DNA of 64,000 nt from Candidatus Merdicola faecigallinarum (GCA_018714565.1 DVNH01000027.1:1009-65008); one strand, 5' to 3'; shown: positions 4,775-58,702, counted from the stretch's first letter. Numbers and translations: made by a program. Notes: generated by a model from the sequence alone, not told the origin.

Positions 4775-4886
4775 TAAGAAAAGTGACTTCGCCACATGTA
4801 CAGATTGCTTCGCAATCGCACAGACTAATGTAACTTAACCTTGTTACTCCAGAAATTTCTGACGAAATTTCCTACGTAATAAAAAA
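4775..4886 (+). repeat. Dispersed ~110-nt multi-hairpin repeat, copy A
   Basis: TAAGAAAAGTGACTTCGCCACATGTACAGATTGCTTCGCAATCGCACAGACTAATGTAACTTAACCTTGTTACTCCAGAAATTTCTGACGAAATTTCCTACGTAATAAAAAA. An extra inverted copy of its 3' end (TAGTAGGAAATTTC) sits at 4753..4766. Confidence 0.85.
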
Positions 4887-4914
4887 GCACTGAAAAGCTT
4901 CTTCTTTTCAGTAC
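4887..4914 (-). terminator. Rho-independent terminator after pheT
   Basis: Hairpin GCACTGAAAAG / CTTTTCAGTAC. On the minus strand it is followed by a T-run that is also the first bases of repeat copy A. Confidence 0.6.
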
Positions 4915-4949
4915 TTTGACAAAGGTATTCATTTTTATTCTAGTGTATC

Positions 4950-7376
4950 TTATTTTCTAAGTTCTGCTCCTAACTCTTTTTCTAACCCAGCTATTATTTC
5001 TTCCATAATTGGATTAATTTCATCGTCACTCATTGTTCTGTCTTTCGCTCTAAATTTTAAGCTATAAGCAATACTCTTTTTATCATTTCCGATTTTTTCA
5101 TCACGATAAATATCAAATAATTTTAATTCTTCTAAGTTTTTCTTTGCTTTTTTCTTAATAATCTTTTCAATTTGTCCTACTTCTACTTTTTCATCTACTA
5201 AAATTGCAATATCCCTTTCCATTGCTGGATATTTTGGTATTTCTACATATTTTTTATTCGATTTTCCGTATTTCTCTAATTTTGCAAGACAAATTTCTGC
5301 TACATATACTCTTTGAGATATGCCATAGTTACTTGCAAGAATAGGATGAATTTCTCCTAAAACAGCGATTGTATCATTTCCTATTTTTATATTTGCTGTT
5401 CTTCCCGGATGATAAATTTCATTTTCCGTTTCTCTTACTACTTCATATCTTAATACATCTGATACTTCTAAAATATTTTCTACATATCCTTTTAATTCAT
5501 AAAAATCTACTTTTTCTCCATACATTCCTAATGTTAAAATAATTTCTTCTGATGGTAATTTTCCTTCTTCAATTTGATGATTATCATTGCGATATCTTCT
5601 CGAAATATCAAATAATTTTACTTCTGGATTCTTTTTATTAGAATTATTTGCTAACATTTGCATCATACTAGGAATCGTAGTTGGTCTTAATAATGTATAG
5701 TCCTCACTTAATGGATTTTTTACTGCAATAATTTCTTTTCTTAATGGGTTTTCTTCTCCCACATTAATTTTTTCTAAATCTTTTTGGTTGATGAATGCAT
5801 AAGTATATATTTCAGACATTCCTCTATTTACTAATAATTTACGAACATTATCTTCTAATTTTTGACCTTTATTCTTTCCTCCAGCAACCGTTTCTGCATG
5901 AATTAAAGTACTATCTAATTTATCATATCCATAAAATCGAACTACTTCTTCTGCAATATCTGCAATTCCTTCTAAATCTTGGCGATAGAATGGTGGCGTT
6001 AAAGTATCTCCTTCGATTTTAATATCTAATCTTTGAAGAATATCTACCATTTCTTCTCTTTTTAAATTTGTTCCTAATAATTGATTAATTCTATCCACAT
6101 TTAATAAAATTTTATTTTCTTTTTGCTTGGTTGGATAAACATCGATTACACCTTCTACCGCTTCTCCAATTCCTAACATTTCTACTAATTGTGCTGCTCG
6201 ATTAGCAGATCTTAACGCATTTTCAGGAGATAATCCTTTTTCATAACGACTAGATGCTTCTGTTCTTAGCCCTACTTTTTTAGCTGTTTTTCTTACACTT
6301 CCTCCATAGAATACAGCAGATTCAAATACAACCGTTTGCGTATCCTTTTCGATTTCTGAATTTTGACCTCCCATTACACCTGCAATTGCAACTGCTTTTT
6401 CTTTATCACTAATCACAAGCATAGTATCCTCTAAATTTCTTTCTACATCATCTAATGTTACAATTTTTTCTCCTTTTGTTGCTCTTCTTACATTAATGTG
6501 TTTTCCAGCAATAGAATTGATATCAAATGCATGCATTGGTTGACCAAGTTCTAGCATTACATAATTTGTTATATCTACAATATTATTAATACTTCTTACT
6601 CCACATGCATTTAATCTTCTTACCATCCATTCTGGAGAAGGTCCAATCTTTACATTTTTTACTACTTTTGCCACATATCGATAACAAAGATCTGGCGCAC
6701 TAATTTCAACACTTAATCCTTCAATTTCATCTTTTGGAACATATGGAATTTCTTTTAAATCTTTACGGGGATCTTTAAATTCTTCTTTTAAAGATACTGC
6801 TGTTTCTCTTCCCAATCCCTCAATAGATAAACAATCAGGACGATTTGGTGTAATTTCAAATTCAATAATATCTTCTCTTAAATTTAATACTTCAACAATA
6901 TCCATTCCTAATTTTGATTCATACTCTTTTGGTAAAATCATAATTCCATGTTCAATTTGTCCTGGATAATTTTCAATATTCAAACCTAATTCTCCTACAG
7001 AACACATCATACCACAGGAATCAATTCCTCTAAGTTTTCCTGTTTTTATTTTTACGCCTCCTGGTAGTTCTGATCCATCTTTTGCAATTGGTACAATATC
7101 ATTTACTTTAATATTGTTTGCTCCTGTTACAATTTGTAAAATTTCATCCTTTACATCTACTTTTGTTACTACTAACTTCTCTGCATCTGGGTGTTTTTCT
7201 ATCTCTAAAATTTTTCCTACTACTACATTTTTAATATCATTTCCTTTTTCTTCTACAGTCTCTACCTTTGATCCTGTTAGCGTAAGAATATCTCCTAATT
7301 CTAATGCAGATTTATTAATATTTGAATATTCTTCTAACCATTCTATACTTGCTTTCATACTTTCCTTCCTTTCCAT
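4950..7376 (-). CDS. pheT: Phenylalanine--tRNA ligase beta subunit
   Basis: 808 aa. It has an N-terminal tRNA-binding OB domain and B3/4 and B5 regions, is downstream of pheS, and the full length is colinear with PheT. Confidence 0.95.
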   Translation of the reverse strand: MERKESMKASIEWLEEYSNINKSALELGDILTLTGSKVETVEEKGNDIKNVVVGKILEIEKHPDAEKLVVTKVDVKDEILQIVTGANNIKVNDIVPIAKDGSELPGGVKIKTGKLRGIDSCGMMCSVGELGLNIENYPGQIEHGIMILPKEYESKLGMDIVEVLNLREDIIEFEITPNRPDCLSIEGLGRETAVSLKEEFKDPRKDLKEIPYVPKDEIEGLSVEISAPDLCYRYVAKVVKNVKIGPSPEWMVRRLNACGVRSINNIVDITNYVMLELGQPMHAFDINSIAGKHINVRRATKGEKIVTLDDVERNLEDTMLVISDKEKAVAIAGVMGGQNSEIEKDTQTVVFESAVFYGGSVRKTAKKVGLRTEASSRYEKGLSPENALRSANRAAQLVEMLGIGEAVEGVIDVYPTKQKENKILLNVDRINQLLGTNLKREEMVDILQRLDIKIEGDTLTPPFYRQDLEGIADIAEEVVRFYGYDKLDSTLIHAETVAGGKNKGQKLEDNVRKLLVNRGMSEIYTYAFINQKDLEKINVGEENPLRKEIIAVKNPLSEDYTLLRPTTIPSMMQMLANNSNKKNPEVKLFDISRRYRNDNHQIEEGKLPSEEIILTLGMYGEKVDFYELKGYVENILEVSDVLRYEVVRETENEIYHPGRTANIKIGNDTIAVLGEIHPILASNYGISQRVYVAEICLAKLEKYGKSNKKYVEIPKYPAMERDIAILVDEKVEVGQIEKIIKKKAKKNLEELKLFDIYRDEKIGNDKKSIAYSLKFRAKDRTMSDDEINPIMEEIIAGLEKELGAELRK

Positions 7377-7422
7377 TTTTCTTTTATTTAAGTATTTCCT
7401 TTATCATAAGTTATTTTTTGTT

Positions 7423-7734
7423 TTATTCTCTTTCTGTTAGTCCAATCGTTTTATCTACTTGTTTTTGAGCCATTTCTTGATCACGGTTTCTCTTTCTTTG
7501 CGCTCCTAAGCTCCAACTTTGATTTGGATTTCTTCTTCTTGCTTTTCTTACTTCAATTTCATAACCAACCGTTACATGTAATCTTTCGTCAATTACTTTT
7601 TGTACATCGATACAAATTCCCTTCTTTTGATATTCTTCTTTTAGTCTTTTTAACTCTTGTATTCTTGCCTTTTCATCAAAAGGTCCATAAAAATCACGTA
7701 TATCTACATATCGCTTTATGATTGGTTCTTTCAT
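7423..7734 (-). CDS. Small hypothetical protein inserted between pheS and pheT
   Basis: The likely start is ATG 7734 (MKEPIIKRY...), preceded by AAAGGAGAGAAAG. The C-terminus is basic. I recognise no family. Confidence 0.5.
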   Translation of the reverse strand: MKEPIIKRYVDIRDFYGPFDEKARIQELKRLKEEYQKKGICIDVQKVIDERLHVTVGYEIEVRKARRRNPNQSWSLGAQRKRNRDQEMAQKQVDKTIGLTERE

Positions 7735-7779
7735 CTTTCTCTCCTTTATTTCTTTTAAGAATAAAACTTTTAACATGCC

Positions 7780-8799
7780 TTAAAATTGTTTTAAGAATCG
7801 AACATCATTTTCAAATAATAAACGCATATCATCAATTCCGTATTTTGCCATAGCAATTCTTTCTGCACCACATCCAAATGCAAATCCCGAATATTCTTCT
7901 GGATCAATTCCGCAATTTCTTAGTACATTAGGATGTACCATTCCACAACCTAATAGTTCGATCCATCCTTCTCCTTTACATGTTTTGCACCCTTTTCCTC
8001 CACAAACGAAACAAGAAACATCTACTTCTGCACTTGGTTCTGTAAATGGGAAATGGTGTGGTCTAAATCTTATTTTTGTATTTTCTCCTAAACATTTTTT
8101 AGCAAATACTTCTAACGTTCCTTTTAAATCTGCCATTGTAATATTTTTATCAATTACTAATCCTTCTATTTGATGGAATACTGGTGAATGAGTACTATCT
8201 ACACTATCAGAACGATATACAGCTCCTGGACAGATAATACGAATTGGTGGCTTTTTACTTTCCATTACTCTTGCTTGCACTGGTGAAGTTTGTGAACGAA
8301 GTACAATATCATCTGTAATATAGAACGTATCTTGACTATCTCTTGCTGGGTGATCTTCTGGTGTATTTAATTTGTCAAAATTATAGATTGCAAGCTCTAC
8401 TTCTGGTCCATCTGCAACTTCATACCCTAATCCAATGAAAATATCCTCAATCTCTTTATTAATACTTGTAACAGGATGTACAGATCCAATTTCTATTTTT
8501 TTACTTGGTTCTGTTACGTCAATTGTTTCTGTTTGTAATTTATGATTTAATTCTTCTCTTTTTAGTTCTGCTTCTTTTCCTTGAATTTCTTTTTCAAGTT
8601 CATCTCTTACTTGATTTACTAAACTTCCAATGACTGGTCTTTCTTCTGGTGAAAGACTTCCCATTCCTCTTAAAACAACAGTAAGTTCACCTTTTTTCCC
8701 TAAATATTTTACTCTTTGATCATTTAATTCCTTTAAGTCTTTTGCACTTTTTATTTCCTGTAGTGCATTCTCTTCAATCTGTTTGATTTGTTCTTTCAT
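7780..8799 (-). CDS. pheS: Phenylalanine--tRNA ligase alpha subunit
   Basis: Class II aaRS motifs are present ([29 protein letters not shown]). The likely start is ATG 8799, after GGGAGGAAAATC. Confidence 0.95.
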
Positions 8800-8865
8800 G
8801 ATTTTCCTCCCTTTTTTATTTTTTCCTATGATGGTACTTTCTCTTTTTTCTTCTATCAATTACAA

Positions 8866-9075
8866 TCAAAAAAGCCATCCATCCTATTGCTAGGACGAAT
8901 GGCTTAAACGATCCGTGGTACCACCTAATTTATTAATTTTAATAATTAATCACTCATTTGCTATAACGTTGCAACCGTTATTTTCTACTTGTTTTCAAAA
9001 ATAAACCTCAAAAGTGAAATTTCCATAAATCGGATTGGACTGGCTTCCAGCAAACGCCCTTCTCTCTATACAATC
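8866..9075 (-). promoter_or_regulatory. T-box leader upstream of pheST, Phe-type
   Basis: On the minus strand: an AGAGAG box, the GGAAAUUUCAC region containing UUC followed by A, the T-box sequence AGGTGGTACCACGG (plus 8913..8926), then the terminator AAGCCATTCGTCC...GGATGGATGGCTTTTTT. Confidence 0.85.
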
Positions 9076-9242
9076 TTAACAATTTATGTACTTTGCTTTT
9101 TCAAAGGCTTTTTTATTTATGTGCAATATCATATCATACTTTTTTTATTTGTGCAAGCTTATCTTAAGTTAGATTCTTGTTCTCTTAAAAATTTCACAAA
9201 CTATCTTCCTTGCATTTTTTATTATTATCTACTTTTTTACTT

Positions 9243-9337
9243 GTTTTATACTAACTTAAGCTATCATATGTATTTAATGCAGAAATAAAAAAAATAGACC
9301 AAAAAATGTTTTATACTAACTTAAGCTATCATATGTA
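9243..9337. repeat. 30-bp direct repeat, two copies 65 bp apart
   Basis: GTTTTATACTAACTTAAGCTATCATATGTA occurs at 9243..9272 and again at 9308..9337. The second copy covers the last codons and stop of ORF 9316..9516. Confidence 0.8.
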
Positions 9338-9516
9338 CGATGAATTGATGCTGTTACATTATTTAAATCATTTTCAATTTTATTTTCTTCTTTGGCACTT
9401 GTAAATGAATTTGCCATATATCCTACAAAAAAACCAACTAAAAATGCTACTACAACAATGATTACATTTCTCATTTCTTCTTGTTTATTATACATATCTT
9501 TATCATATATTTTCAT
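9316..9516 (-). CDS. Small single-pass membrane protein, hypothetical
   Basis: 66-aa ORF with one hydrophobic helix (VIIVVVAFLVGFFVGYM). No family recognised. Confidence 0.4.
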   Translation of the reverse strand: MKIYDKDMYNKQEEMRNVIIVVVAFLVGFFVGYMANSFTSAKEENKIENDLNNVTASIHRTYDSLS

Positions 9517-9544
9517 AAGCTTGTCCTCTCCTTTGTTTCTTATT

Positions 9545-10066
9545 TTATTCTTCTACTTTATTTTCCTTTTGGATCCACTTTCTCTGAATTGGAATCATTA
9601 CAATATATCCAATGCTTTCTATTGCAGCAACTACTAATGTAATGATCATTTGCAGTGATTTTGCTTCTTCTACTACACTTTTTATTTGTTCTTGTATTTC
9701 TTCTCCTAAACTTAACATTTGACCATCAATTCTTAAAATTGAAACAGAATAAACAATAGCATTATAAAATGTGGTAAATAAAATACAAATAATAAAAAAT
9801 ATTAACATATTTCTTTGAAATTTCTTTACGTTTTCTTCGTCCAATAATTTAGATCTAAATATATCTTTGGTAGATAACTTTGTTGCTAAAAAAACGGAAA
9901 TAAATAATGCTACTACTGTTAAAATTGATGAAATAATAATATTCACTTTTGTATAGATAAACGAAAAAATAACTCCAAATATTAAGGTTAAAATAATATA
10001 ATATAAAACATAATGCCATAAAAAACTAAATGTCATTTTTCCTGAACTTCCAATTTCTTTTTCCAC
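9545..10066 (-). CDS. Multi-pass membrane protein, hypothetical
   Basis: 173-aa ORF with about four hydrophobic segments. No family recognised. Confidence 0.5.
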   Translation of the reverse strand: MEKEIGSSGKMTFSFLWHYVLYYIILTLIFGVIFSFIYTKVNIIISSILTVVALFISVFLATKLSTKDIFRSKLLDEENVKKFQRNMLIFFIICILFTTFYNAIVYSVSILRIDGQMLSLGEEIQEQIKSVVEEAKSLQMIITLVVAAIESIGYIVMIPIQRKWIQKENKVEE

Positions 10067-10164
10067 TATTCTTCCTCCATTTTCTTCTGTTTATTTTCTG
10101 TATTTTTATAAAACAATTTTTATCTATTTATATATTTTATCTTTGTTGTACTGCCAATAATTAT

Positions 10165-10443
10165 TTATTCTCTATCGTCTCCCTGATACTGTTCTTCTTT
10201 TTCAATCATTTGTTTTGCAAAATCAGCATATAATGAATCTGGATGTTTTTTCATATAAGTATCATATTCTTTTTTTATTGTACTTGCATATAAAAGTGCT
10301 CCATCCATTCCCTGTTTCTTTCTTACATTTTCTATTTTTTTCCACAGCTTTTTCCTTGGATCTTGAATATCACCTAATAAAACTAGATCTTTTTGCAATT
10401 TCATTTTGTTTAAAAAATTTAAAACTTCTCTATAATTGTACAT
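10165..10443 (-). CDS. Hypothetical protein
   Basis: 92-aa ORF, co-directional with its neighbours. No motif recognised. Confidence 0.4.
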   Translation of the reverse strand: MYNYREVLNFLNKMKLQKDLVLLGDIQDPRKKLWKKIENVRKKQGMDGALLYASTIKKEYDTYMKKHPDSLYADFAKQMIEKEEQYQGDDRE

Positions 10444-10525
10444 TCTTAAAAACCTTTCTTGCCTTATTGTATCATATCTTTTTTTCTTTTTCTATCCTTT
10501 CTATTTAAAAATATAAATTTGTTTT

Positions 10526-11125
10526 TTATAGTGGCTTATAAGTTTTCGTTGGTTTATACTGACCATATACTCTACTTCCATAAATACTTTCTAATCTTTC
10601 TCTTTCTGTTAAGTTTTTCTTTTCTTTCTTTATTTTCACTTTTTCATTTAGCATTTTATTCATCTGATTTATTTTCTCTTTCTTTTCTCTTTCTTTCTCT
10701 TTTTTATATGCTCTTTCCTTGTTTTCCATTTCTTTCTGAATTTTCTTTGCTTTTATTGCTTCTTCTTTTCTTCTATTTATTTCCTCTTTTTTCTTATTTC
10801 TATTCTCTATTTTATTTTGTTTTGGTTCCATCCAACTATTTTCTTCTATCATTTCTAATTTTAAAATATCTGTTTTTTGTGGTAATAATTTAAATTTTTC
10901 TTTTTTATTTTCTCTCTTCTTTAAGAATGGCTTTTTTTCTTTTTCTACAAATCGAAACGTTACAACATAAGCTCCCCATTCATTTAAAGTCACATGGGCA
11001 GTTGCCGTTCTGTTTTCAAATTTTTTCTTCGTTTCATCAATTTCTTTCATAATATCTTCTGCATTATATTGTTCTGAATCATAACAATATTCTAATATTT
11101 TTGCAGTCTTAGACATTTCTACCAT
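10526..11125 (-). CDS. Hypothetical Lys/Glu-rich protein
   Basis: 199-aa ORF with a long charged KE-rich C-terminal half. The plus-strand ORF 10459..10893 is its low-complexity shadow. Confidence 0.45.
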   Translation of the reverse strand: MVEMSKTAKILEYCYDSEQYNAEDIMKEIDETKKKFENRTATAHVTLNEWGAYVVTFRFVEKEKKPFLKKRENKKEKFKLLPQKTDILKLEMIEENSWMEPKQNKIENRNKKKEEINRRKEEAIKAKKIQKEMENKERAYKKEKEREKKEKINQMNKMLNEKVKIKKEKKNLTERERLESIYGSRVYGQYKPTKTYKPL

Positions 11126-11232
11126 CCTTTTTTAACTTTTCTCCTTATATATGTTAACATAATCTATTAATTTTATCAAGAGAAAATCACTAGAAAAAGA
11201 AGTGGTATAGCCACTTCTCTTAATTTTTTCTT

Positions 11233-12225: not shown

Positions 12226-12404
12226 ACAAGCCACCTCCTTTTTGTACACCGTGTTGATTTTCTTTCTTATATGTATTATAATACTATTAAAGTTGATATT
12301 CAATCATCAATATTTTTTGGATTGCATCATGTTCTACATCATCATGCTTATTGTATATTATTGAACATTTTCAATATGTTTGTTGATAAATAGAGGTGAT
12401 TCTA

Positions 12405-12980
12405 ATGAAAGAAAATGATCAAAGAGTAAGAATTACAAAATTATTAATTAAAAAGACCTTTACAGAATTGTTGACCAAAAAACCAATTCAAAAAATTTCT
12501 GTAAAAGAACTTTGTGAAAAAGCTGGAATTAATAGAGGAACTTTTTATAGCCATTATGAAGATATTTACGACTTGTTAGAAAAAATAGAAAATGAAATGC
12601 TAGAAGAATTTAAAATTCAATTGTCTCCTATTTTAACTTCTTCCGAAGCTGATTTAACATCCCTTGATTTCTTTATTAGTATTTTCAAATTTTTAGCAAA
12701 TCATTCTGATATTTGTATTATTATGTTTAGTGAAACCGGAGATAAAACTTTTGTGGCAAAAATGTTAGAGCTAGGAAAAGCTCAATGCATCTCTGCTTAT
12801 ACCAAACATTTTAAAAATGCTTCTCCAGATCAAATTGAACACTTTTATTCTTTTGTAAGTGCTGGGTGTATTTCTATTTTAGTAAAATGGCTAGAAGGTG
12901 GTATGAAAGATTCCATTGACGATCTGGCAAAAACAACAGAGGAATTAATTTCTTGTACCATTAAATATTTAGAAAGTTAA
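12405..12980 (+). CDS. TetR/AcrR-family transcriptional regulator
   Basis: N-terminal HTH SVKELCEKAGINRGTFYSHY. ATG 12405 lies 8 nt after AGAGG. Confidence 0.85.
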   Translation: MKENDQRVRITKLLIKKTFTELLTKKPIQKISVKELCEKAGINRGTFYSHYEDIYDLLEKIENEMLEEFKIQLSPILTSSEADLTSLDFFISIFKFLANHSDICIIMFSETGDKTFVAKMLELGKAQCISAYTKHFKNASPDQIEHFYSFVSAGCISILVKWLEGGMKDSIDDLAKTTEELISCTIKYLES

Positions 12981-12987
12981 AAATAAA

Positions 12988-13023
12988 AGGCCGAATATGA
13001 AACGAAACATTCATATTCGGCTT
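12988..13023 (+). terminator. Rho-independent terminator after the TetR gene
   Basis: Hairpin AAGGCCGAATATGA / TCATATTCGGCTT followed by CTTTTAT, which runs straight into repeat copy B. Confidence 0.7.
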
Positions 13024-13134
13024 CTTTTATTACATAGGAAATTTCGTCAGAAATTTCTGAAGTAACAAGGTTAAGTTACATTAGTCTGTGCGATTACGAA
13101 GTAATCTGTATATATGGCAAATTCACTTTTCTTA
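13024..13134 (-). repeat. Dispersed multi-hairpin repeat, copy B (opposite orientation)
   Basis: Reverse complement of the family consensus. The GATTGC/GCAATC stem is replaced by GATTAC/GTAATC, a compensatory pair. The TAA of its TAAGAAAAG end is the stop codon of the 13132.. gene. Confidence 0.8.
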
Positions 13135-14338
13135 TAATTCTACCTCTTCTAATAGCTTATTTAATCTGTTGGTAATTTCATTCATGAATTTTAAAGCAGA
13201 ATAACAGGTAAATAGATATTCTTTATCCATAGATTTTCCAAATATCTTAGGTTCGAACATAGGTCCTGTAAAAAAACGGAAAAAGATATGATTTTCTTTT
13301 ATTACGATTTCAAATTTTAACTTTTTATAGAATTCTGCTAAATATTCCATTGTATCTATTGTTAATAATCTTAATGTTAAAATTTTATCCTCTGAATATA
13401 CATTAAAAATTTCTTCAAATTCTGCATGATCTGTTTCTACTCTATCATTCCCTTTAAATATTCCTCCTGTAACATTCATAATGCTTTCATCCAGGTTTCC
13501 AACATTTTTATTTGTAATTCTTATATAAGTATTTAGTGTTTTTTTACAATCCATATAGGCAAACATACCTTGAAATAACGTTTCTACATTTGTATGCTTT
13601 CCCGATCTAGTAACTTGTTGTACATTAATATCACACATTTGAAATTTAACATCATTCTCCGTATTTCCTTGTATATAATCATCTGTAAAGAATCGATTAA
13701 AAGTTCTTCCATCAAAATTTGCCTTTTCATAGCTTTTTCTTGCCTCAATCCCCAATGTTTCATAAGCTTCTGTTGTTTTATAAGTTAAATTTGGATATAA
13801 CCCTTTTATAAAATTTGAAATAATTTCATCTTTATATACTTTTATATATTTTCTCTTATATTTTTGATTTACAAAAAGAAGAACTACACTCGAAATAAAA
13901 AGTATAAAACAAAGAATTGGCAACATTCCTCTAATAGAATTCGGAATAATGGAGCTTCCTCCGTAACATAATTATGATAACAAATACAGCTAATAATCCA
14001 TATTGAATTATCATACGAATCTTTACTTTCTCTCTTATCTTTTCTAATTGAATCATATGATTTTGATATAGCTCTTGATACAATCCATCAAATTGTTCTT
14101 GCTTACCTTCTTCTAGACTTACGTATTCTTGTTTTGCCATTTCTTTTCTTTTTTTATTTCCTATAATTTTAGGACTAACTGCTGCAAATACTACATATAG
14201 CATAACAACAATATTAATCAATAATCCATATTTTTGAAAAATCATCATCATTGTATCTATTGGAACAACAAAGAAGCTTCCAATTAATACAATAATTAAT
14301 ACAAGCATAAATCCAAATCGAATTAACGAGTCTCTCAT
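13132..14338 (-). CDS. DUF3137-like membrane protein, contiguous only if the frame shifts +1 at in-frame CGG 13963..13961
   Basis: ORFs 13931..14338 and 13132..13926 join as ...IIIML-[C]-GGSSIIPNSIRGMLPILCF... to give 401 aa (N-terminal TM region plus the downstream domain). A LemA gene is adjacent, a common DUF3137 neighbour. Confidence 0.6.
13961..13963 (-). other. In-frame CGG recoding/frameshift site 1
   Basis: mRNA reads AUG UUA CGG AGG AAG. The zero frame stops 10 codons later. The +1 frame reads GGA GGA AGC and runs into the next ORF. Confidence 0.6.
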
Positions 14339-14463
14339 TTTTCTTCACCAAGTTTATTGTAACATTGAAACAATTCCTTGACAAGAATTATTTTGTCCTA
14401 TATTGTTTTTCTTTGTCGTTTATGGTAGAATTTTTTTAAAGAAATCGAAGGAGATATTGAACT

Positions 14464-14988: not shown

Positions 14989-14994
14989 AACAAA

Positions 14995-15105
14995 TAAGAA
15001 AAGTGGCTTCGCCACATGTACAGATTGCTTCGCAATCGCACAAACTAAAGTAACTTAACCTTGTTACTCCAGAAATTTCTTTCGAAATTTCCTACGTAAT
15101 AAAAA
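14995..15105 (+). repeat. Dispersed multi-hairpin repeat, copy C
   Basis: TAAGAAAAGTGGCTTCGCCACATGTACAGATTGCTTCGCAATCGCACAAACTAAAGTAACTTAACCTTGTTACTCCAGAAATTTCTTTCGAAATTTCCTACGTAATAAAAAG. Confidence 0.85.
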
Positions 15106-15160: not shown

Positions 15161-16162
15161 TTATTTCATTGCTTCTTCTACTGCTACTGCTACTGCTACA
15201 GAAGCTCCAACCATTGGGTTGTTACCCATTCCAATTAATCCCATCATTTCAACATGAGCTGGAACAGAAGATGATCCTGCAAATTGTGCATCAGAGTGCA
15301 TTCTTCCCATTGTATCTGTCATACCATAAGAAGCTGGTCCTGCTGCCATGTTATCTGGATGTAATGTTCTTCCTGTTCCTCCACCAGAAGCTACTGAGAA
15401 ATATTTCTTTCCTTGTTCGATACATTCTTTCTTATATGTACCTGCTACTGGATGTTGGAATCTAGTTGGGTTTGTAGAATTTCCTGTAATAGAAACATCT
15501 ACACCTTCTAGATGCATAATCGCAACACCTTCTCTAACATCATTTGCACCATAGCATCTAACTTTTGATCTTTCACCATCTGAATATGGTATTTCTTCTA
15601 CTACCTTTACTTTTCCTGTAAAGAAATCAAATTCTGTTTTTACATATGTAAATCCATTAATTCTTGAAATTACTTGTGCTGCGTCTTTTCCTAACCCATT
15701 TAAAATAACTCTTAATGGTTCTTTTCTAACTTTGTTTGCAGATTTTGCTATACCAATAGCTCCTTCTGCAGCCGCAAAACTTTCATGTCCTGCTAAAAAT
15801 GCAAAACATTTTGTTTCTTCAGAAAGTAACATAGATGCTAAATTTCCATGTCCTAATCCAACTTTTCTATCATCTGCAACAGATCCTGGAATACAGAATG
15901 CTTGTAATCCTTCTCCTATCGCTTTTGCTGCATCTGCAGCCTTAGTACAACCTTTTTTAATTGCAATTGCTGCTCCTAATGTATATGCCCAAGCAGCATT
16001 TTCAAAACAAATTGGTTGTACTCCTTTTACGATTTCGTATGGATTAAATCCTTTGTCTGTACATATTTTTAATGCATCTTCGAAATCTTTTATTCCGTAT
16101 TTTTCCATTACTGGTTTAATTTGGTCTATTCTTCTTTCATAACTTTCAAATGTTACTGCCAT
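15161..16162 (-). CDS. GGGtGRT-family protein (uncharacterised conserved family)
   Basis: Contains the eponymous motif SGGGTGRTLHPDN. 333 aa, with a strong GGAGGTAAAATC RBS. Confidence 0.8.
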   Translation of the reverse strand: MAVTFESYERRIDQIKPVMEKYGIKDFEDALKICTDKGFNPYEIVKGVQPICFENAAWAYTLGAAIAIKKGCTKAADAAKAIGEGLQAFCIPGSVADDRKVGLGHGNLASMLLSEETKCFAFLAGHESFAAAEGAIGIAKSANKVRKEPLRVILNGLGKDAAQVISRINGFTYVKTEFDFFTGKVKVVEEIPYSDGERSKVRCYGANDVREGVAIMHLEGVDVSITGNSTNPTRFQHPVAGTYKKECIEQGKKYFSVASGGGTGRTLHPDNMAAGPASYGMTDTMGRMHSDAQFAGSSSVPAHVEMMGLIGMGNNPMVGASVAVAVAVEEAMK

Positions 16163-37421: not shown

Positions 37422-37982
37422 TTAATAATTTGTTCTAAGCTCCCAAATTAGAACTTTTTCTTGATTCACTCCAATATTTTTATTAAATACAGAAAATTCT
37501 ACTACTACATTTTGTAAATTATGTTCTAATACATAATCAATAATGTCATAGGCTCCATTAATATATTTTAGCTTTTTATCAAAGATATCGGTATTAATAT
37601 GATATTTTGCATTGTTTACAGCTTCTCTTGCAGAATCACATTTTTCGTTAGTACCTTCTATCGTTACATTTCCTTTTTCATCAATCAGAATGTTTCCTGT
37701 TAAAACTTGATTATCGATATAGTTAAATTGGCTTACCCCAACTGTACAAATATCAAATTTTTGATAACTATTTAAAATGTCTTCTTTGGATGCTTTATGG
37801 TTTCTATTTTTGGAATTTGATTTCACATTATCACGAATGGAATAAAATTGTGCTGGGTGTGAATCTAAAAATCCTTCTACATCCTGAACACCATTTACTT
37901 TGAACATTTTTTGTGGTAATACATTTAAATTTAATTTTTCAATTAATTCTGCACTTTCCAATTTGTTATAAATTTGATACAT
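37422..37982 (-). CDS. Hypothetical 186-aa protein lying between the T-box leader and glyQS
   Basis: Strong RBS AAGGTAGGAGGTTTTAAT before the ATG. It ends 13 nt before glyQS. I recognise no family. Confidence 0.55.
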   Translation of the reverse strand: MYQIYNKLESAELIEKLNLNVLPQKMFKVNGVQDVEGFLDSHPAQFYSIRDNVKSNSKNRNHKASKEDILNSYQKFDICTVGVSQFNYIDNQVLTGNILIDEKGNVTIEGTNEKCDSAREAVNNAKYHINTDIFDKKLKYINGAYDIIDYVLEHNLQNVVVEFSVFNKNIGVNQEKVLIWELRTNY

Positions 37983-38008: not shown

Positions 38009-38078
38009 CCGAAGTAAGAAAGAAAACTTAACCTTGTTACTTTAGAAATTTCTCCCGAAATTTCCTACGTAATGAAAA
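38009..38078 (+). repeat. Dispersed multi-hairpin repeat, copy D (5'-truncated)
   Basis: CCGAAGTAAGAAAGAAAACTTAACCTTGTTACTTTAGAAATTTCTCCCGAAATTTCCTACGTAATGAAAAG retains only the last two hairpin modules. Related degenerate modules (CTCGCTTCGCGAG, GAAAAATTGCTATGCAATTTTTC) follow up to ~38250. Confidence 0.7.
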
Positions 38079-38289
38079 GATAAATTTCGCCTTGGGAAAA
38101 CTTTGCACTACATTTTCTTCTAAGGACAAATCTCGCTTCGCGAGAACTTTCCTCTACTTTTTCTAATTTAACTATATATTTTTAAGTTCTCAAAGAAGCG
38201 TAAAGATTTGTCGACGCGAAAAATTGCTATGCAATTTTTCTGTGCAATCTTTTTTTGTTATATAGGAAAAATTACTTTTTCCTATATAA

Positions 38290-38490
38290 CAAAAAAACTC
38301 TCGTCCTAGCTAAATGCTAGGGACGAAAGTTTATATCCGCGGTTCCACCCTATTTGATAATGTAAGCAGCATTATCCACTCTGTTTTTTTATGCTCCAAA
38401 GCTCCCCATATTCGTTTGCTGTTAGTTTACACCATCCACTAACTCTCTTAAAACAAAACTGAAATATTTTTTCTTTTTCTTCGCACTATT
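38290..38490 (-). promoter_or_regulatory. T-box leader (presumed glyQS leader)
   Basis: On the minus strand: a GTGCGAAGA...GGAGCA K-turn-like pair, an AGAGAG box, the T-box sequence AATAGGGTGGAACCGCGG (plus 38337..38350), then the terminator CGTCCCTAGCATTTAGCTAGGACGAGAGTTTTTTT. Confidence 0.8.
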
Positions 38491-52694: not shown

Positions 52695-53933
52695 CTATTT
52701 TATTCTCCAATTTTTGATTCTTTCGATCGCTTTTATGGTATTTTCTTTTGTTCCAAAGGCAGTTAATCGAAAATATCCTTCCCCACTTGGTCCAAAACCA
52801 GAACCTGGAGTTCCTACTACTCCTACTTCTTCTAACAGTTTATCAAAGAACTCCCAAGAAGTAATTCCTTCTGGTACTTTTAACCATATATAAGGAGCAT
52901 TTTTTCCACCATATACTTCAAATCCAGCCTCTTGTAGTCCGTTTCGGATTAATTTTGCATTTTCCATATAATACTTAATATTTTCTTTTATTTCTTTTTG
53001 TCCTTCTTCAGAATAAATTGCCTCTGCTCCTCTTTGTGTAATATAAGAAACGCCATTAAACTTTGTACAATGTCTACGATTCCATAATTTATTTAATTCT
53101 ACTTCTTCTTCGTTTTCTGTATATCCTTTTAATTCCTTTGGAACTACAGTATAGGCACATCTAACGCCAGTAAATCCTGCTGTTTTAGAAAAACTACGAA
53201 ATTCAATTGCTACTTCTTTTGCTCCTTCAATTTCATATATACTATGTGGCACATTCTCTTCCGTAATAAAAACCTCATAAGCAGAATCAAATAGAATAAG
53301 AGATTTATTCTCTTTGGCATATTGAACCCATTTTGCTAATTCCTCCTTTGTAAGGATTGTTCCTGTTGGGTTATTTGGCAGACATAAATAAATCATATCT
53401 GGTACTTCTTTTGGAAATTCTGGTACAAAATTATTTTCTGCCGTACAAGGCATATAAATAATTCCTTCATAAGTTCCTTCTTTTTCTTTGTAGGCTCCAG
53501 TTCTACCTGCCATCACATTCGTATCTAAATAAACAGGATATACCGGATCTGTAATTGCTACTTTATTTTTAATTGATAAAATATCTCCAATATTTCCACA
53601 ATCACATTTTGCTCCGTCGGATAAAAATATTTCGTCCTCTTTTATATCGATCCCACGATTTTGATATTCAAATTCTACTATTTTTTTCCTTAAAAAATCA
53701 TAGCCTTGTTCTGGCCCATATCCATGAAATCCTTGTGGTGTTCCAATTTCGTCAATTGCTTTGTGCATTGCTTCTACTGCCGATTTTACAATTGGTCTTG
53801 TTACATCTCCTATTCCTAACTTAATAATTTCCTTTTCTGGATGTTTTTGTTGATAGCTGGCTATTTTCTTTGCTATCGTTGAAAATAAATAGCTATCCTG
53901 CATTTTTAAAAAATTTTCGTTTATTTTTATCAT
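52695..53933 (-). CDS. dapL: LL-diaminopimelate aminotransferase
   Basis: Class I aminotransferase with the PLP-Lys motif [12 protein letters not shown]. The N-terminus [20 protein letters not shown] is typical of DapL. It lies beside murE and dapF. Confidence 0.8.
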
Positions 53934-54132
53934 ATTTTGCCTCCTAAGAGTTCTATCGTTATAGATCTTTCAAGTCTGAAAGTTCTTAATTCTTTTATAT
54001 TATTTCTATGTTTTCTTGTCAAGAGTATGTACAAAAAAAAGTGAAAAGTATATAATGCAAGTAAATTTAAATCTATATCGATTGAATTTTATTAAGTTCA
54101 TTTGATAATTAGAAAAATAAGGAGTGCATTTT

Positions 54133-55641
54133 ATGAAACTAAAAGACATATTCAAAAATATAGAAATAATAGAATATAAAGGAGATTTGGAAAAAGAGAT
54201 TAAAAATATTTCTTCTAACTCCAAAGAGATACAGGAAAATGATTTATTTTTTGCAATAAAAGGATATACTTTAGATGGTACTCAATTTATTCCTAACGCA
54301 ATTGAAAATGGAGCAACTGCAATCGCCGTTGATGAAACTTGCGATTTAAATTCTTTCGATATACCTAATGAAATCACATTCATTAAAATTAACCGTATTC
54401 GTTATCATCTAGCGATTGCTAGTGCTAATTTATATGGTCATCCATCTACCAAATTAAAATTAATTGGAGTAACAGGAACAAAAGGAAAAACAACTTCTAC
54501 TTACATGATTAAATCTATCTTAGAAAAACACAATTTTAAAGTTGGATTAATTGGAAGTATTGCAATTTATATTGGAGATGAAAAATTAGAAGATACCGAT
54601 AGAACAACTGCAGAAAGTTATAAAATTCAAAAAACATTGGCACAAATGGTAGATGAAAATGTAGAAATTGCAATTTTAGAAGTTTCTTCTCAAGCAATGA
54701 AATTAGATCGAGTAGTTGGCTGTCATTTTGATGAAGTATTATTTACTAATTTAACAGAAGATCACATCAGTCCTAGAGAACATAAAGATATGGAAGATTA
54801 TTTTAATGCTAAATTATCTTTAGTAAAAATGGCTCCATTCCTTGTAACGAATTTAGATAATGACTATACTTCCAGAATTCCAAATCTATTATCAGAAAAA
54901 GAAATTTTAACTTTTGGAATGGAACATTCTTCTGATATTATGGCAAAAGATTTAGAGTTAAGTAATATCGGTGTTCATTTTACTTTAGTAATGGATCAAA
55001 AAGAATATCCTGTATATGTTTCTATTCCAGGAAAATATATGGTATATAATTGTCTTGGAGCAATTGGTATTGCAAAAAAAATGGGTTGCACTATCTCTGA
55101 CATTCAGGAAGGATTAAAAAATATTAAAGTATTTGGACGAAGTGAAGTTGTTCCTAATAAATTAGGATTAAAAATATTAATTGATTATGCTCATACTCCT
55201 TCTAGTTTACAATCTATTCTAGAAACAGTAAAACCTTATACGAAAGGTCGTGTTATTTGTACCTGGGGAGTTGGTGGAGATCGTGATCGTAAAAAAAGAC
55301 CAATTATGGGTGAAATTTCTGGCAACTTAGCCGATCTTACCATTTTAACTTCTGATCAAGTTCGTACAGAAGAACCAGAACAAATTTTAAATGAAATTGA
55401 AGTTGGATTAAAAAGATCAGGTGGTAATTATGTAAAAATATTAAATCGAACAGAAGCAATTCGATATGCATTATCGATTGCAACTACAGATGATATTATC
55501 GTTCTTCCTGGTCTTGGAAGCGATTTATATATTGAATATATGCATGTAAAATATCCATACAACGAAAGAACTGTAATTCATGATACCATCGAAGACATGA
55601 TCGCTTCTGGCAAAAGAAATCCAATAGGAAATAACTTTTAA
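54133..55641 (+). CDS. murE: UDP-N-acetylmuramoyl-L-alanyl-D-glutamate--2,6-diaminopimelate ligase
   Basis: Mur ligase P-loop GVTGTKGKTT and the DNPR-like region. ATG 54133 follows AAGGAG. Confidence 0.9.
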   Translation: MKLKDIFKNIEIIEYKGDLEKEIKNISSNSKEIQENDLFFAIKGYTLDGTQFIPNAIENGATAIAVDETCDLNSFDIPNEITFIKINRIRYHLAIASANLYGHPSTKLKLIGVTGTKGKTTSTYMIKSILEKHNFKVGLIGSIAIYIGDEKLEDTDRTTAESYKIQKTLAQMVDENVEIAILEVSSQAMKLDRVVGCHFDEVLFTNLTEDHISPREHKDMEDYFNAKLSLVKMAPFLVTNLDNDYTSRIPNLLSEKEILTFGMEHSSDIMAKDLELSNIGVHFTLVMDQKEYPVYVSIPGKYMVYNCLGAIGIAKKMGCTISDIQEGLKNIKVFGRSEVVPNKLGLKILIDYAHTPSSLQSILETVKPYTKGRVICTWGVGGDRDRKKRPIMGEISGNLADLTILTSDQVRTEEPEQILNEIEVGLKRSGGNYVKILNRTEAIRYALSIATTDDIIVLPGLGSDLYIEYMHVKYPYNERTVIHDTIEDMIASGKRNPIGNNF

Positions 55642-55702
55642 AGCCTATTTATTTTATCTAGAAAACAGGAAGATTCATTTTCTTCCTGTTTTCTTCGTCC
55701 GT

Positions 55703-56545
55703 CTATACTTCAATTTTTCCTTCAAATACATAATTTGCAATTCCTTTCATTTTCACATGCTTACTTTTCTCTTCGCAAGAAATTTTTAATTCTCCTCCTT
55801 TTAATAGTACCGTTACTTCCGCATCACAAAAATTATTTAAATATCCTGCCACGACTGCCGCACAAGCACCTGTTCCACAAGCATATGTTTCTCCTACCCC
55901 TCTTTCCCACACTCTTAATTTTATTGTTTTTCTTCCTAATATTTGAACAAATTCTACATTAATATGATTTGGAAAAATTTCTAAATTCTCTATCAGCGAA
56001 CCATATTTTTTAACATCTACTTTCTCTACATTATCTACAAAGAAAATAATATGTGGATTTCCCATCGAAATCCCATATCCTATCATCTCTTTTTCTTGAA
56101 TTTTCAATTTAACAATTTTTCCTCCCCCTGTTTCTTTCCCTTCTTTTATATTTTCACTATCATTTAATTTTGGTTTTCCCATATCCACTTCGATTTCGTC
56201 AAAAGGTAATCCACATCTTACTTTTCGAATTCCTGATTTTGTTTCTACTAGCATTTCATCCCTATTGAAAATCTGATACTTTTGCACATATTTTGCAAAG
56301 CAACGAATCCCATTTCCGCACATCTCTGCTTCTGTTCCATCCGCATTATAAATTTGCATTCGAATATCGGCTATCTTACTTTCCTTTACTAAAATAACTC
56401 CATCTGCTCCTACTCCAAAATGTCGATTACATAAATATCGAACCACTTCTCCTATCTTATCTTTTATCATCCTATAATTACTTCCTAAACAATTAATACA
56501 AATATAATCATTTCCAAGACCATGCATTTTTGAAAAAGTAATCAT
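55703..56545 (-). CDS. dapF: Diaminopimelate epimerase
   Basis: Motifs FSKMHGLGNDY, MCGNGIRC and ACGTGACAAV (the two catalytic Cys). Confidence 0.9.
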   Translation of the reverse strand: MITFSKMHGLGNDYICINCLGSNYRMIKDKIGEVVRYLCNRHFGVGADGVILVKESKIADIRMQIYNADGTEAEMCGNGIRCFAKYVQKYQIFNRDEMLVETKSGIRKVRCGLPFDEIEVDMGKPKLNDSENIKEGKETGGGKIVKLKIQEKEMIGYGISMGNPHIIFFVDNVEKVDVKKYGSLIENLEIFPNHINVEFVQILGRKTIKLRVWERGVGETYACGTGACAAVVAGYLNNFCDAEVTVLLKGGELKISCEEKSKHVKMKGIANYVFEGKIEV

Positions 56546-56748
56546 TTTTATCCTCCTATATCTCCACTCAAAATTTTATTTTGTATTCTCTTTTTAACTT
56601 ATATATATTATTATTCTTTCTTCATTATATGAATTACCTGTTTATTTCATAACCGTAGAAATTCTATTTTTTCTTTGTTTTTTTATATAATTTGTGCTAA
56701 AATGCTATTGTAGTCACTGTTGTGTAATATATATGAAAGGAGATATCC

Positions 56749-57156
56749 ATGAAGAAAGCATTTATGTCATTAAAATTTCATGATGGCGAAGAAGACAAAA
56801 AGAAAATTGACGATTTAACAGAAGCTCTTCTAAATGCAGGAATCCAAAATGTCGTAATGGCTCGTGATGTAGAAAAATACGGCGAAGCTGTATTACCGGA
56901 AGGTACAAAACTGATGCCGGATTATGCATTTCCTGCAATGAGAGAGTGTGACATGTTAATTGTCGAATTTTCTGAAAAAGGCGTTGGCTTAGGAATTGGA
57001 GCAGGATATGCTTATGCAATTGGCCTTCCTATTTATGTTATCGCAAAAACAGGAAGCGACATTTCCTTAACCATGAGTAATTTAGCAAAAGAAGTCATTT
57101 TTTACGACTCCGTAGATGAACTTACAGAAAAATTTAGGAGGATTGAAACCCAATGA
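56749..57156 (+). CDS. Nucleoside 2-deoxyribosyltransferase-like protein
   Basis: 135 aa. The pattern CDMLIVEFSEKGVGLGIGAGYAYAIGLPIYVI resembles the deoxyribosyltransferase/DNPH1-like fold. It is locally GC-richer than the surroundings. Confidence 0.5.
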   Translation: MKKAFMSLKFHDGEEDKKKIDDLTEALLNAGIQNVVMARDVEKYGEAVLPEGTKLMPDYAFPAMRECDMLIVEFSEKGVGLGIGAGYAYAIGLPIYVIAKTGSDISLTMSNLAKEVIFYDSVDELTEKFRRIETQ

Positions 57157-57728
57157 TTCATGTACTTTTAGCATCCAAATCTGCCTTCAGAAAGCAGATG
57201 TTAGAAAGGGAACATATTCCCTTTCATATTTTCGTCAGTGATGCGGACGAAACACCGAATCCATCCAAAAGTTTTGAAGGACAACTAAAAGAAATCTCTA
57301 TGAGAAAAGCTCAGATTGTCTTCAAAAAAACGATCGATTTAGGAGAAAGAGTTATTGTTGCGGCTGACCAAAACATTGTCTTTGAAAATGTAATGTACGG
57401 AAAACCAAAAACTTTAGAGGAAGCCCGAGACTTAATTGTCCGCATGCAAGGACACAATGATATCTATGCCTATGTAGGAAATTCATTGATCTATGCTAAC
57501 GGGGCACATATTCTAAAAACAATAAACAATTGCGATATCGCTAAAATGCGTATGGATCATTTCTCAAAAGAGGAACTGGAAGAGTATCTTTCTACCAAGA
57601 AACCATTAACAAAATGTGGAGGAATTCATATTTCTGATACTCCATCTCTTTCTCTAGAAGAAGGAAAAATGTCTACTGCCTATGGAATGACAATTGAATA
57701 CTTAAAGGATTTACTATCTTCTTTATAA
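57153..57728 (+). CDS. maf: Maf-like nucleoside-triphosphate pyrophosphatase
   Basis: The N-terminus LASKSAFRKQMLEREHIPFHIFVSDADE and overall length fit Maf. Its start overlaps the upstream stop (ATGA). Confidence 0.8.
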   Translation: MIHVLLASKSAFRKQMLEREHIPFHIFVSDADETPNPSKSFEGQLKEISMRKAQIVFKKTIDLGERVIVAADQNIVFENVMYGKPKTLEEARDLIVRMQGHNDIYAYVGNSLIYANGAHILKTINNCDIAKMRMDHFSKEELEEYLSTKKPLTKCGGIHISDTPSLSLEEGKMSTAYGMTIEYLKDLLSSL

Positions 57729-57774
57729 TCATCAAAATATTACAAGAGAATTTATGATTTTAAATCTAACAGCG

Positions 57775-57812
57775 GAAGGGACGCTTACAATTCAGTAGGC
57801 GTCCCTTTTCTT
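57775..57812 (+). terminator. Terminator after maf
   Basis: GC-rich hairpin GAAGGGACGC / GCGTCCCTT followed by TTCTTC. Confidence 0.65.
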
Positions 57813-57938
57813 CATTCTTCAGCATTTACGATCTTCTGCTTGTCCTTCACAACAATATTCCAACTTCGACTCTATTATATTAGTTAGGGGATAAAAACTT
57901 TCTCTATTGACTTGGAATCACTAGCTTTAAATTTAAAA

Positions 57939-57966
57939 CAAAAAAATCGACCTATCACAGTCGATT
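57939..57966 (-). terminator. Terminator of the tRNA operon
   Basis: Hairpin AATCGAC / GTCGATT followed by a 7-nt T-run on the minus strand, 37 nt after tRNA-Phe. Confidence 0.65.
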
Positions 57967-58002
57967 TAATCTTTTTTCGTCTAATATGACGATTATGTGT
58001 TT

Positions 58003-58078
58003 TGGTGCCTCGAACGGGAATCGAACCAGTGACACAGGGATTTTCAGTCCCTTGCTCTACCAACTGAGCTATCGAGGC
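58003..58078 (-). tRNA. tRNA-Phe (anticodon GAA), CCA encoded
   Basis: Minus strand GCCTCGATAGCTCAGTTGGTAGAGCAAGGGACTGAAAATCCCTGTGTCACTGGTTCGATTCCCGTTCGAGGCACCA. It folds as a cloverleaf with anticodon loop CUGAAAA. Confidence 0.95.
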
Positions 58079-58120
58079 TTATTTAATTAATAAATTTTGA
58101 ATAGCTTCATCGTATTTATA

Positions 58121-58233
58121 TAAGAAAAGTGGCTTCGCCACATGTACAGATTGCTTCGCAATCGCACAGACTTAGGTAACTTAACCTTGTTACTCTAGAA
58201 ATTTCTGACGAAATTTCCTACGTAATAAAAAAA
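58121..58233 (+). repeat. Dispersed multi-hairpin repeat, copy E, inside the tRNA operon
   Basis: A full copy lies between tRNA-Asp and tRNA-Phe. On the minus strand it begins immediately after the CCA end of tRNA-Asp. Confidence 0.85.
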
Positions 58234-58310
58234 TGGCGACCTGGAACGGGCTCGAACCGTCGACCTCTAGCGTGACAGGCTAGCGTTCTAACCAACTGAA
58301 CTACCAGGCC
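58234..58310 (-). tRNA. tRNA-Asp (anticodon GUC), CCA encoded
   Basis: Minus strand GGCCTGGTAGTTCAGTTGGTTAGAACGCTAGCCTGTCACGCTAGAGGTCGACGGTTCGAGCCCGTTCCAGGTCGCCA. Anticodon loop CUGUCAC. Confidence 0.95.
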
Positions 58311-58321
58311 GTAAAGAAAAA

Positions 58322-58397
58322 TGGTGGTCGCTATAGGGCTCGAACCTATGACCCCCTGCTTGTAAGGCAGATGCTCTCCCAGCTGAGCTAAGCGACC
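58322..58397 (-). tRNA. tRNA-Val (anticodon UAC), CCA encoded
   Basis: Minus strand GGTCGCTTAGCTCAGCTGGGAGAGCATCTGCCTTACAAGCAGGGGGTCATAGGTTCGAGCCCTATAGCGACCACCA. Anticodon loop CUUACAA. Confidence 0.95.
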
Positions 58398-58417
58398 TTG
58401 TTCTTTCGACGAGTTTT

Positions 58418-58446
58418 ATTTTACTAAATTTTGGTCTATCTGTCAA
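58418..58446 (-). promoter_or_regulatory. SigA-type promoter of the tRNA operon
   Basis: Minus strand TTGACA, a 17-nt spacer, then TAAAAT, about 20 nt upstream of tRNA-Val. Confidence 0.6.
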
Positions 58447-58590
58447 TACTTATTTTAAATTTTTTTTATTTTTTATTATTTCTTCTAAAATTTATCCTTA
58501 TATATCATATCAGAAGCCTATAAATATATAGTATTCTACAGTATATTATGTTTTATTTTTTATATAAAAATTTACATTTAACTAAACCAA

Positions 58591-58702
58591 TAAGAAAAGC
58601 GGCTTCGGCACATGTACAGATTGCTTCGCAATCGCACGAAGTAAAGAAACTTAACCTTGTTACTTCAGAAATTTTTGACAAAATTTCCTACGTAATAAAA
58701 AA
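58591..58702 (+). repeat. Dispersed multi-hairpin repeat, copy F
   Basis: A divergent copy. The last hairpin is GAAATTTT / AAAATTTC instead of GAAATTTC / GAAATTTC, a compensatory C:G to T:A change. Confidence 0.85.

Follow-up and report, generated by a model that had tools for sequence, protein, structure and literature searches.

A 105-nt gene-less hairpin element with junctions defined at TTTTTAT and a preference for terminator tails in Candidatus Merdicola faecigallinarum

A stretch of 64,000 nucleotides from Candidatus Merdicola faecigallinarum (GCA_018714565.1; contig C9:1009-65008 of an assembly of 1.50 Mb and 28.8% G+C), referred to here as the window, carries six copies, one of them truncated, of a short repeat that folds into hairpins, and raises the question of whether this repeat is a mobile element or a structured RNA module of its host. 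An earlier note on the window had allowed for both. Comparison of the copies within the genome (coded G000) and with related genomes showed that the repeat is a mobile, gene-less, hairpin-bearing element of 104-106 nt, typically 105 nt, which has junctions defined at TTTTTAT, stacks behind copies of itself and prefers the tails of terminators. Genomes are coded G, loci L and the contigs of this genome C.

All six copies lie where the earlier note had placed them, and its consensus was reproduced. A 35-nt core gave four matches in the window at up to 3 mismatches, where shuffles led us to expect none, and a repeat search returned four direct copies of 126 nt (84-100% identical), copies of 63 nt numbering five, with the truncated copy D among them, and copy B in inverted orientation (85-92%). 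In an alignment that included the flanks, similarity began sharply at ATAAG and stopped in an A-run, the flanks being unrelated. The element is described throughout on the strand on which its T-run comes first, the complement of that used for the earlier consensus, and on this strand the copies are as follows, copy C serving as the exemplar of the family.

Copy A, 4774..4885, - strand: insert 4774-4878; target TTTTTAT (read on the - strand) 4879-4885; situated after the pheT terminator hairpin, about 4887-4915.
Copy B, 13024..13135, + strand: target CTTTTAT 13024-13030, the tail of a terminator hairpin at 12988-13023; insert 13031-13135, whose terminal TTAT, read as ATAA, gives the converging gene 13132-13926(-) its stop codon.
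Copy C, 14994..15105, - strand: insert 14994-15098; target motif 15099-15105; mini-hairpin H1 GTGGC-GAA-GCCAC 15003-15015, followed by TTTTCTTAT; mini-hairpin H2 GATTGC-GAA-GCAATC 15023-15037; long hairpin 15064-15099.
Copy D (truncated), 38016..38078, - strand: target-like TTTTCAT 38072-38078; the left (long-hairpin) half only, 38071 to about 38026, both mini-hairpins being gone.
Copy E, 58120..58233, - strand: insert 58120-58224; T-run plus AT 58225-58233; adjoining the CCA end of tRNA-Asp (58234-58310, -) within a tRNA Val-Asp-Phe cluster.
Copy F, 58590..58701, - strand: insert 58590-58694; target motif 58695-58701; downstream of hup (58767-59045, -) and the hup terminator hairpin.

An iterated nhmmer profile found 117 copies genome-wide, or about one per 13 kb, of which 84 were full length, mostly 111-112 nt when the A-run is included; the large genomic family that had been anticipated thus exists. 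Measured against the consensus, the copies have a median identity of 92.9%, with 31 of them at 95% or above, which suggests a fairly recent burst of copies over an older layer.

Mobility is seen at sites which are occupied in one genome and empty in another (^ marks a junction in the formulae that follow). The tRNA Val-Asp-Phe cluster is kept across the genus, and its Asp-Phe spacer is empty in about 18 species, where it reads CCA-TTTTTTTAT^ATATAGGAAATGG. In three species (G005, G012 and G020) the spacer is occupied and reads CCA-TTTTTTTAT-(TGCGTAGG…GCCACTTTTCTTAT)-ATATAGGAAATGG, and copy E lies at the same point; most sister species thus lack an insert at its site, and three have one. Three further pairs were found. 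The occupied locus L003 has an empty counterpart on contig C31 of this genome, hairpin-TTTTTAT^TTTGCATAATC being common to both; L141 is occupied and its counterpart on C42 is empty; and a three-copy array stands behind a terminator at L114, with an empty counterpart on C41. In these comparisons the insert lies directly 3' of TTTTTAT and ends in TTAT, and the right flank is intact. Three more intergenic regions hold the element in this genome and also in a sister species, with flanks that do not align, and the region downstream of gene 15161-16162 was too diverged across 25 species to yield an empty site.

The element is always found 3' of TTTAT or TTAT. The TTAC that had been noticed at the junction is to be read as TTAT^TAC, with TTTTTAT as the target. 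Tandem junctions read …CTTTTCTTAT^TACGTAGG… and belong to head-to-tail arrays with a period of about 105 nt. The right end of the element (TTTTCTTAT, a T-run plus TTAT) repeats the target, and new copies therefore land behind old ones and build such arrays. In 16 of the 84 full-length copies the TAA stop codon of a converging gene falls within the terminal ATAA, and since the element brings an ATAA of its own, insertion onto a stop codon in ATAAAAA is repaired. No terminal inverted repeats were found in the genome copies or in the cross-species alignment, the ends TACGTAGG... and ...CACTTTTCTTAT not being complementary. The non-autonomous transposable element proposed in the earlier note is supported by the exact empty and occupied sites, by sets of copies that differ between species, by stacking in tandem and by ends that are not inverted repeats.

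Three other sites were recorded in the course of these comparisons. At C4:49630-49693, a site occupied in L138, this genome has hairpin-TTTTTTTAT-TACGTATTGTGAT…, and the first six bases past the target are those of the left end of the element (TACGTA), so that the site may have been left by a deletion instead of being cleanly empty. The copies at the tRNA-Asp site of four species (58120-58233 against L045-L047) are identical over the right-hand 60 nt, and their long hairpins differ by three fully compensated double changes, a pattern that fits point mutation in place less well than it fits separate insertions of different subfamilies at a hot spot or a swap of the hairpin module. In the window, a perfect 34-nt hairpin at 38257-38290 (-), GTTATATAGGAAAAA-GTA-ATTTTTCCTATATAAC, is flanked by runs of T7 and A7, stands directly after the terminator of a T-box leader (38316-38490) and resembles the long-hairpin variant TTATATAGGAAAAATC… of other species. 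It may be the solo remnant of another copy, in which case the leader-to-gene spacer of about 330 nt would hold two remnants, this one and copy D.

The surroundings of the copies were assessed by scoring as strong any hairpin of -8 kcal/mol or stronger within the 40 nt adjoining an element end, with 861 unoccupied intergenic TTTTTAT sites as the reference. A strong hairpin was present at the T-run end of 39 of the 84 copies (46%) and at the other end of 3 of the 84, while only 123 of the 861 free sites (14%) had one, a difference from the occupied sites with p about 4e-11. Convergent and divergent contexts stand at 33:7 for the copies, as compared with 136:142 for intervals genome-wide. Copies with the T-run-first strand along the genes mostly follow a terminator (52%), those in the opposite orientation mostly do not (17%), and several of the latter are placed after a stop codon and ahead of the ribosome-binding site that comes next; some copies sit inside operon spacers or on stop codons. 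Terminators are thus preferred as sites and are not obligatory. The earlier statement that the repeat always begins at a terminator U-tract or the 3' end of a tRNA is right for five copies of the window (A, B, C, E and F). It fails for copy D, which lies about 25 nt upstream of the ribosome-binding site of gene 37422-37982(-) and not at a terminator, and for the genome as a whole, given the 46% above.

Read T-run first, the left part of the element is (TTTTTAT)^T(A/G)C-GTAG-long hairpin, followed by the conserved linker AACAAGGTTAAGTT, and the right part is GATTGC-GAA-GCAATC, TGTACAT, GTGGC-GAA-GCCAC, TTTTC-TTAT^, with no gene inside. Three helices, two mini-hairpins and one long hairpin, are backed by pair counts taken from the 84 copies of this genome and, separately, from 137 distinct copies of many species. 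The stem of mini-hairpin H1 is GTGGC/GCCAC. In that of H2, GATTGC/GCAATC, pair 34:40 is formed by G-C in 116 copies and by A-T in 20, and 1 copy has it broken. In the long hairpin, the inner stem alternates between GAAATTTC/GAAATTTC and GAAAAATC/GATTTTTC (pair 84:93 is T-A in 69, A-T in 66 and broken in 0), copy F having the compensated variant GAAATTTT/AAAATTTC, and the outer stem alternates between TTAC/GTAA, TTGC/GCAA and TTGTATA/TATACAA (pair 73:104, A-T 76 and G-C 46; pair 74:103, C-G 104 and T-A 28).

The same helices were evaluated statistically on a cross-species alignment (A2) of 61 sequences against 500 shuffles. Paired cells amounted to 92.8% as against 88.1% in the shuffles, none of which (0/500) reached the observed value; cells with double-sided changes numbered 84, where 26.8 were expected; and the covariation score was 0.187 versus 0.101, falling to at most 0.072 when the partners were slid. 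The three hairpins are therefore kept by compensatory substitutions. Covariation beyond chance, which the earlier note had proposed as a check, is thus found for the two hairpins it had drawn with TTC loops (GCGAAGC on the other strand) and for its GAAATTTC hairpin. Its remaining hairpin, GTAAC/GTTAC, is predicted by folding of single sequences; of the 137 copies, only 45% have a Watson-Crick pair at 58:73, and there is no compensation. Instead, GTTAC and the 3' GTAA(T) together form the outer stem of the long hairpin, a covarying pairing which competes with GTAAC/GTTAC. The half of the element with the mini-hairpins is about 90-95% identical between species, and the long hairpin conserves its shape and not its sequence.

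The T-run-first strand was chosen for the description because of its wobble pairs, its GCGAAGC hairpins and its greater folding stability. Mismatches which are A:C on the strand of the earlier note become G:T wobbles on the T-run-first strand (58 versus 31 in stems, plus 147 in the internal loop), and this strand has both GCGAAGC hairpins and the higher predicted stability as DNA (-19.7 versus -17.8 kcal/mol). The sequence d(GCGAAGC) forms a classic hyper-stable DNA mini-hairpin, and the stability of the GAA triloop is known in DNA rather than in RNA. This asymmetry of wobbles and GAA loops points to the T-run-first strand as the likely folding strand.

Of the 24 other species of the genus that were searched, 16 carry the element, and it was detected in none of the 16 genomes that represented eight other genera of the order. 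First-look candidate counts were 113 in this genome and at most 45 elsewhere. A 24-nt pattern from the conserved half matched 51 stretches. Almost all of these bear the label of uncultured Clostridia or of metagenome-assembled genomes of Clostridium and came from human, mouse, ruminant and other animal guts, and a single short contig is labelled Bacilli. For the variable half, an exact 27-nt pattern had no match in other species. Nothing similar was present in the plasmid and phage collections. Judged by these matches, the family appears confined to one genus of uncultured Clostridia.

What moves the element is a separate question. We hold, with moderate confidence, that it is a non-autonomous element mobilised as single-stranded DNA by an enzyme of the HUH/Y1 type acting in trans. 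The T-run-first strand would be the single strand that moves, by a 'peel-and-paste' reaction of an enzyme supplied from elsewhere; the motif adjacent to the transposon would be TTTAT, and the terminal TTAT would be the cleavage motif that the transposon encodes. ISGst2, an element of the same mechanistic class, likewise has TTTAT as its adjacent motif (PMC10055086). The two sequence-conserved GAA-loop mini-hairpins would be the putative sites of protein recognition and the long hairpin a structural spacer. The bias towards terminators may have two components: target choice, since a hairpin followed by a T-run and AT resembles the right end of the element (mini-hairpin H1 plus TTTTCTTAT, which was scored as terminator-like), and purifying selection, since a terminator-like hairpin with a U-run would be polar inside operons in that orientation.

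This genome encodes one Y1 transposase, an intact TnpA of the IS200 type which follows gyrA (C40:10277-11013). The examined IS200 elements of the genus (that on C40 and those of L074-L080, L093, L094 and L101) all stand directly behind a terminator hairpin and T-run, or behind a tRNA, and thus have the terminator-tail habit in common with the 105-nt element. Their ends have 7-bp stems, TTTTA loops and the terminus TTATGATT, and the right ends that could be read stop in GGTTATGATT. Neither TnpB nor IS110 was found in this genome, and a search for the IS91-type Y2 transposase gave no match here and none in the control genomes either.

Several observations weigh against movement by a Y1-type enzyme. 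The TTAT pattern at the junctions fits both an element that ends in TTAT and inserts without duplication and a 4-bp duplication of a TTAT target. IS200 TnpA was tried as a partner with matching ends and rejected, its ends being unrelated to those of the element here and in relatives; a profile of the element compared with the Y1 loci gave no match; and no pair of left and right ends around a gene, as expected of an autonomous copy, was found. Two genomes, G006 and G023, have the element and no Y1 gene. The left and right hairpins of the element are unlike each other, whereas those of typical IS200/IS605 ends are alike. Active IS200/IS605 elements are also usually strongly biased relative to replication, and here the bias is weak: by a GC-skew proxy, which is crude on these short contigs, 64:44 copies lie in the lagging-template direction (p = 0.07), and this is confounded with the terminator preference. 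The link to IS200/IS605 in the earlier note stays plausible, and three of its particulars change: the target is TTTTTAT and not TTAC, no full-length insertion sequence or gene for a REP-associated tyrosine transposase (RAYT; REP, repetitive extragenic palindrome) with the same ends was seen in this genome or the loci examined, and terminators are favoured without being required.

A bolder version of movement as single-stranded DNA, which we consider speculative and rather unlikely, is that a single enzyme recognises 'hairpin-T-run-AT' in two roles, as the end of the transposon and as the site where it lands. The element would then represent an unrecognised subclass of single-stranded DNA transposon, with a right end (mini-hairpin, T-run and TAT) that reproduces in small its target, an intrinsic terminator (hairpin, T-run and AT). 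The enzyme could then be the lone IS200 transposase acting on unlike ends, or a host or unrecognised HUH protein. If true, this would explain at once the homing to terminators, the self-stacking and the scar-free insertion onto stop codons.

A first alternative, which we regard as improbable, is a classical double-stranded transposable element of the miniature inverted-repeat type (MITE) moved by a DDE-type transposase, with a 4-bp TTAT duplication at a preferred T-rich target. TTAT does stand on both sides of every insert and once in empty sites, and the size and the bias to intergenic regions and converging genes are typical of MITEs. In contrast, however, the terminal inverted repeats of such an element are missing, and variants of the left TTAT (TCTAT, TTCAT, TTTAC and TAAT) are not matched by a like change on the right, where CTTAT is conserved as part of the element. 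These unmirrored variants favour insertion without target duplication, as far as the aligned junctions can tell. Furthermore no partner insertion sequence was seen, though no systematic search of DDE families was made.

A shade less probable still is a structured RNA or terminator module that serves the host, be it as a stabiliser of 3' untranslated regions, an extra terminator or a small RNA, with its spread being secondary. The compensatory changes in the hairpins, the terminator-like right end and the 46% of copies after a terminator are all in its favour, as is copy E, which must be co-transcribed with the tRNAs, and an action as RNA has been proposed for the analogous repeats bcr1 and SPRITE. 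The earlier note had every copy co-directional with its upstream gene, which does not extend to the genome: between genes of the same direction the two orientations number 33 and 32, so that about a third of the copies would be transcribed on the 'wrong' strand. At the gathering score Rfam 15 finds only the T-box and tRNA in the window and has no family for the element, and at a permissive threshold copy C gave chance microRNA models only, mostly over the neighbouring terminator. The long hairpin changes its sequence freely, and the sets of copies differ between species, sites being present or absent. Since orientation to genes is not fixed and the GAA triloops on the T-run-first strand are of the d(GCGAAGC) type, whose stability is known for DNA rather than RNA, a dedicated role as a 3'-untranslated RNA, the other option of the earlier note, is disfavoured.

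The least credible of these three, and very unlikely in our view, is a repeat of the REP type, or of the REPIN type in which two such palindromes form an inverted doublet, serviced by the single-copy RAYT-like tyrosine transposase of the genus. RAYT-like genes of 255-270 aa do occur in about 15 of 26 genomes of the genus, and most copies of the element have GTAG or ATAG directly 5' of the inner stem (within the larger hairpin, and roughly half of them ATAG), as in GTAG-tagged REPs (PMC3733652). This genome, however, has the most copies of the element and no RAYT-like gene, and the presence of such genes does not follow the abundance of the element across genomes. The RAYT-like genes are bracketed by palindromes of their own (GAACTTTAGGGACGG..CTTAAAGTTC and variants) and not by the 105-nt element, whose two mini-hairpins are direct copies and not inverted as in a REPIN. 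Single-copy RAYT-like genes between inverted palindromes GAACTTTAGGGACGGAGCTTAAAGTTC or GGGATTTGGGGACGTTCTTTAAATCCC were seen at L081, L086, L087, L089 and L092, L016-L020, L023, L040, L077 and L138 are also listed for this system, and the same palindromes recur downstream of other genes, in what looks like a separate, classical REP/RAYT arrangement in Clostridia. This genome is without nearly all RAYT-associated palindromes such as GAACTTTAGGGACGGAGCTTAAAGTTC. Two other candidates were set aside, a remnant of a class C group II intron, as no group II family reached the gathering score in the window and triloop hairpins of 5-6 bp are unlike domain V, and an integron attC site, which was without any signature.

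Among known systems, the closest analogues in behaviour are bcr1 and SPRITE, and in presumed chemistry REP/RAYT and the palindrome-associated transposable elements (PATEs). The group A bcr repeat bcr1 of the Bacillus cereus group (PMC3184786, PMC6542083) is likewise a dispersed Firmicute repeat of about 100-155 bp with TTTAT direct-repeat flanks, a distribution that is not conserved between relatives, hairpins kept by compensation and no known mobilising enzyme. It differs in being about 155 bp long with a cruciform two-stem fold and in its restriction to the B. cereus group, whereas the element described here has one long hairpin and two GAA-loop mini-hairpins and belongs to one genus of uncultured Clostridia. 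The likeness, drawn from descriptions, is one of behaviour and not of descent, and in the plasmid collection, where bcr1 copies occur, nothing similar to the 105-nt element was present. SPRITE of Streptococcus pneumoniae (PMC3049150), again compared by description, is AT-rich and about 105 nt long, has a terminator-like duplex with a U-rich tract, is strongly enriched between convergent genes and near 3' ends and has no known partner insertion sequence. In contrast to our element, which has exact junctions and three hairpins, SPRITE is bounded by mini inverted ends (AAAA/TTTT), and an empty site has never been found for it.

The REPs, bacterial interspersed mosaic elements (BIMEs) and REPIN-RAYT systems (PMC3116915, PMC3333891, PMC3733652) are extragenic hairpin repeats with a GTAG tag beside the stem, often downstream of genes and clustered, and are presumed to be processed as single-stranded DNA by an HUH Y1 enzyme. 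The 105-nt element, however, flanks no RAYT gene and is a composite unit with defined junctions rather than a palindrome of 25-40 nt or an inverted doublet. PATEs, known from Haloquadratum (PMC3119063) and Geobacillus stearothermophilus (with ISGst2; PMC10055086), share with it the lack of genes and of inverted ends, a length of about 100 nt or slightly more, hairpins in subterminal position on a single strand, a point of insertion 3' of a motif of 4-5 nt (TTTAT), a cleavage motif at the right end and presumed mobilisation in trans. Yet the ends of PATEs match resident elements with tnpA/tnpB, and the 105-nt element is without such a parent; its hairpins differ from left to right, its adjacent motif equals the one it encodes (TTAT), hence its tandem arrays, and its replication-strand bias is weak. 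Because the ends in common with a resident insertion sequence that define PATEs were not found, the element is not filed as a proven IS200/IS605 derivative and is better described as an undescribed family of small non-autonomous hairpin repeats.

The family amounts to about 12 kb, or roughly 0.8% of the 1.5-Mb genome. In a lineage known from metagenomes only, it shapes intergenic regions, the ends of genes (16 stop codons), a tRNA operon and the spacer between a T-box leader and its gene. In practical terms the element should be masked in annotation, its presence or absence and the length of its arrays provide ready strain markers, and it breaks assemblies. It is an element with exact junctions that seeks terminator tails and has neither inverted ends nor a visible transposase. 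The puzzle is the one posed by bcr1 and SPRITE; here, however, the target is defined, as are the strand likely to be active and the conserved hairpins that are candidates for protein binding, and a biochemical search for the enzyme is thus directly possible.

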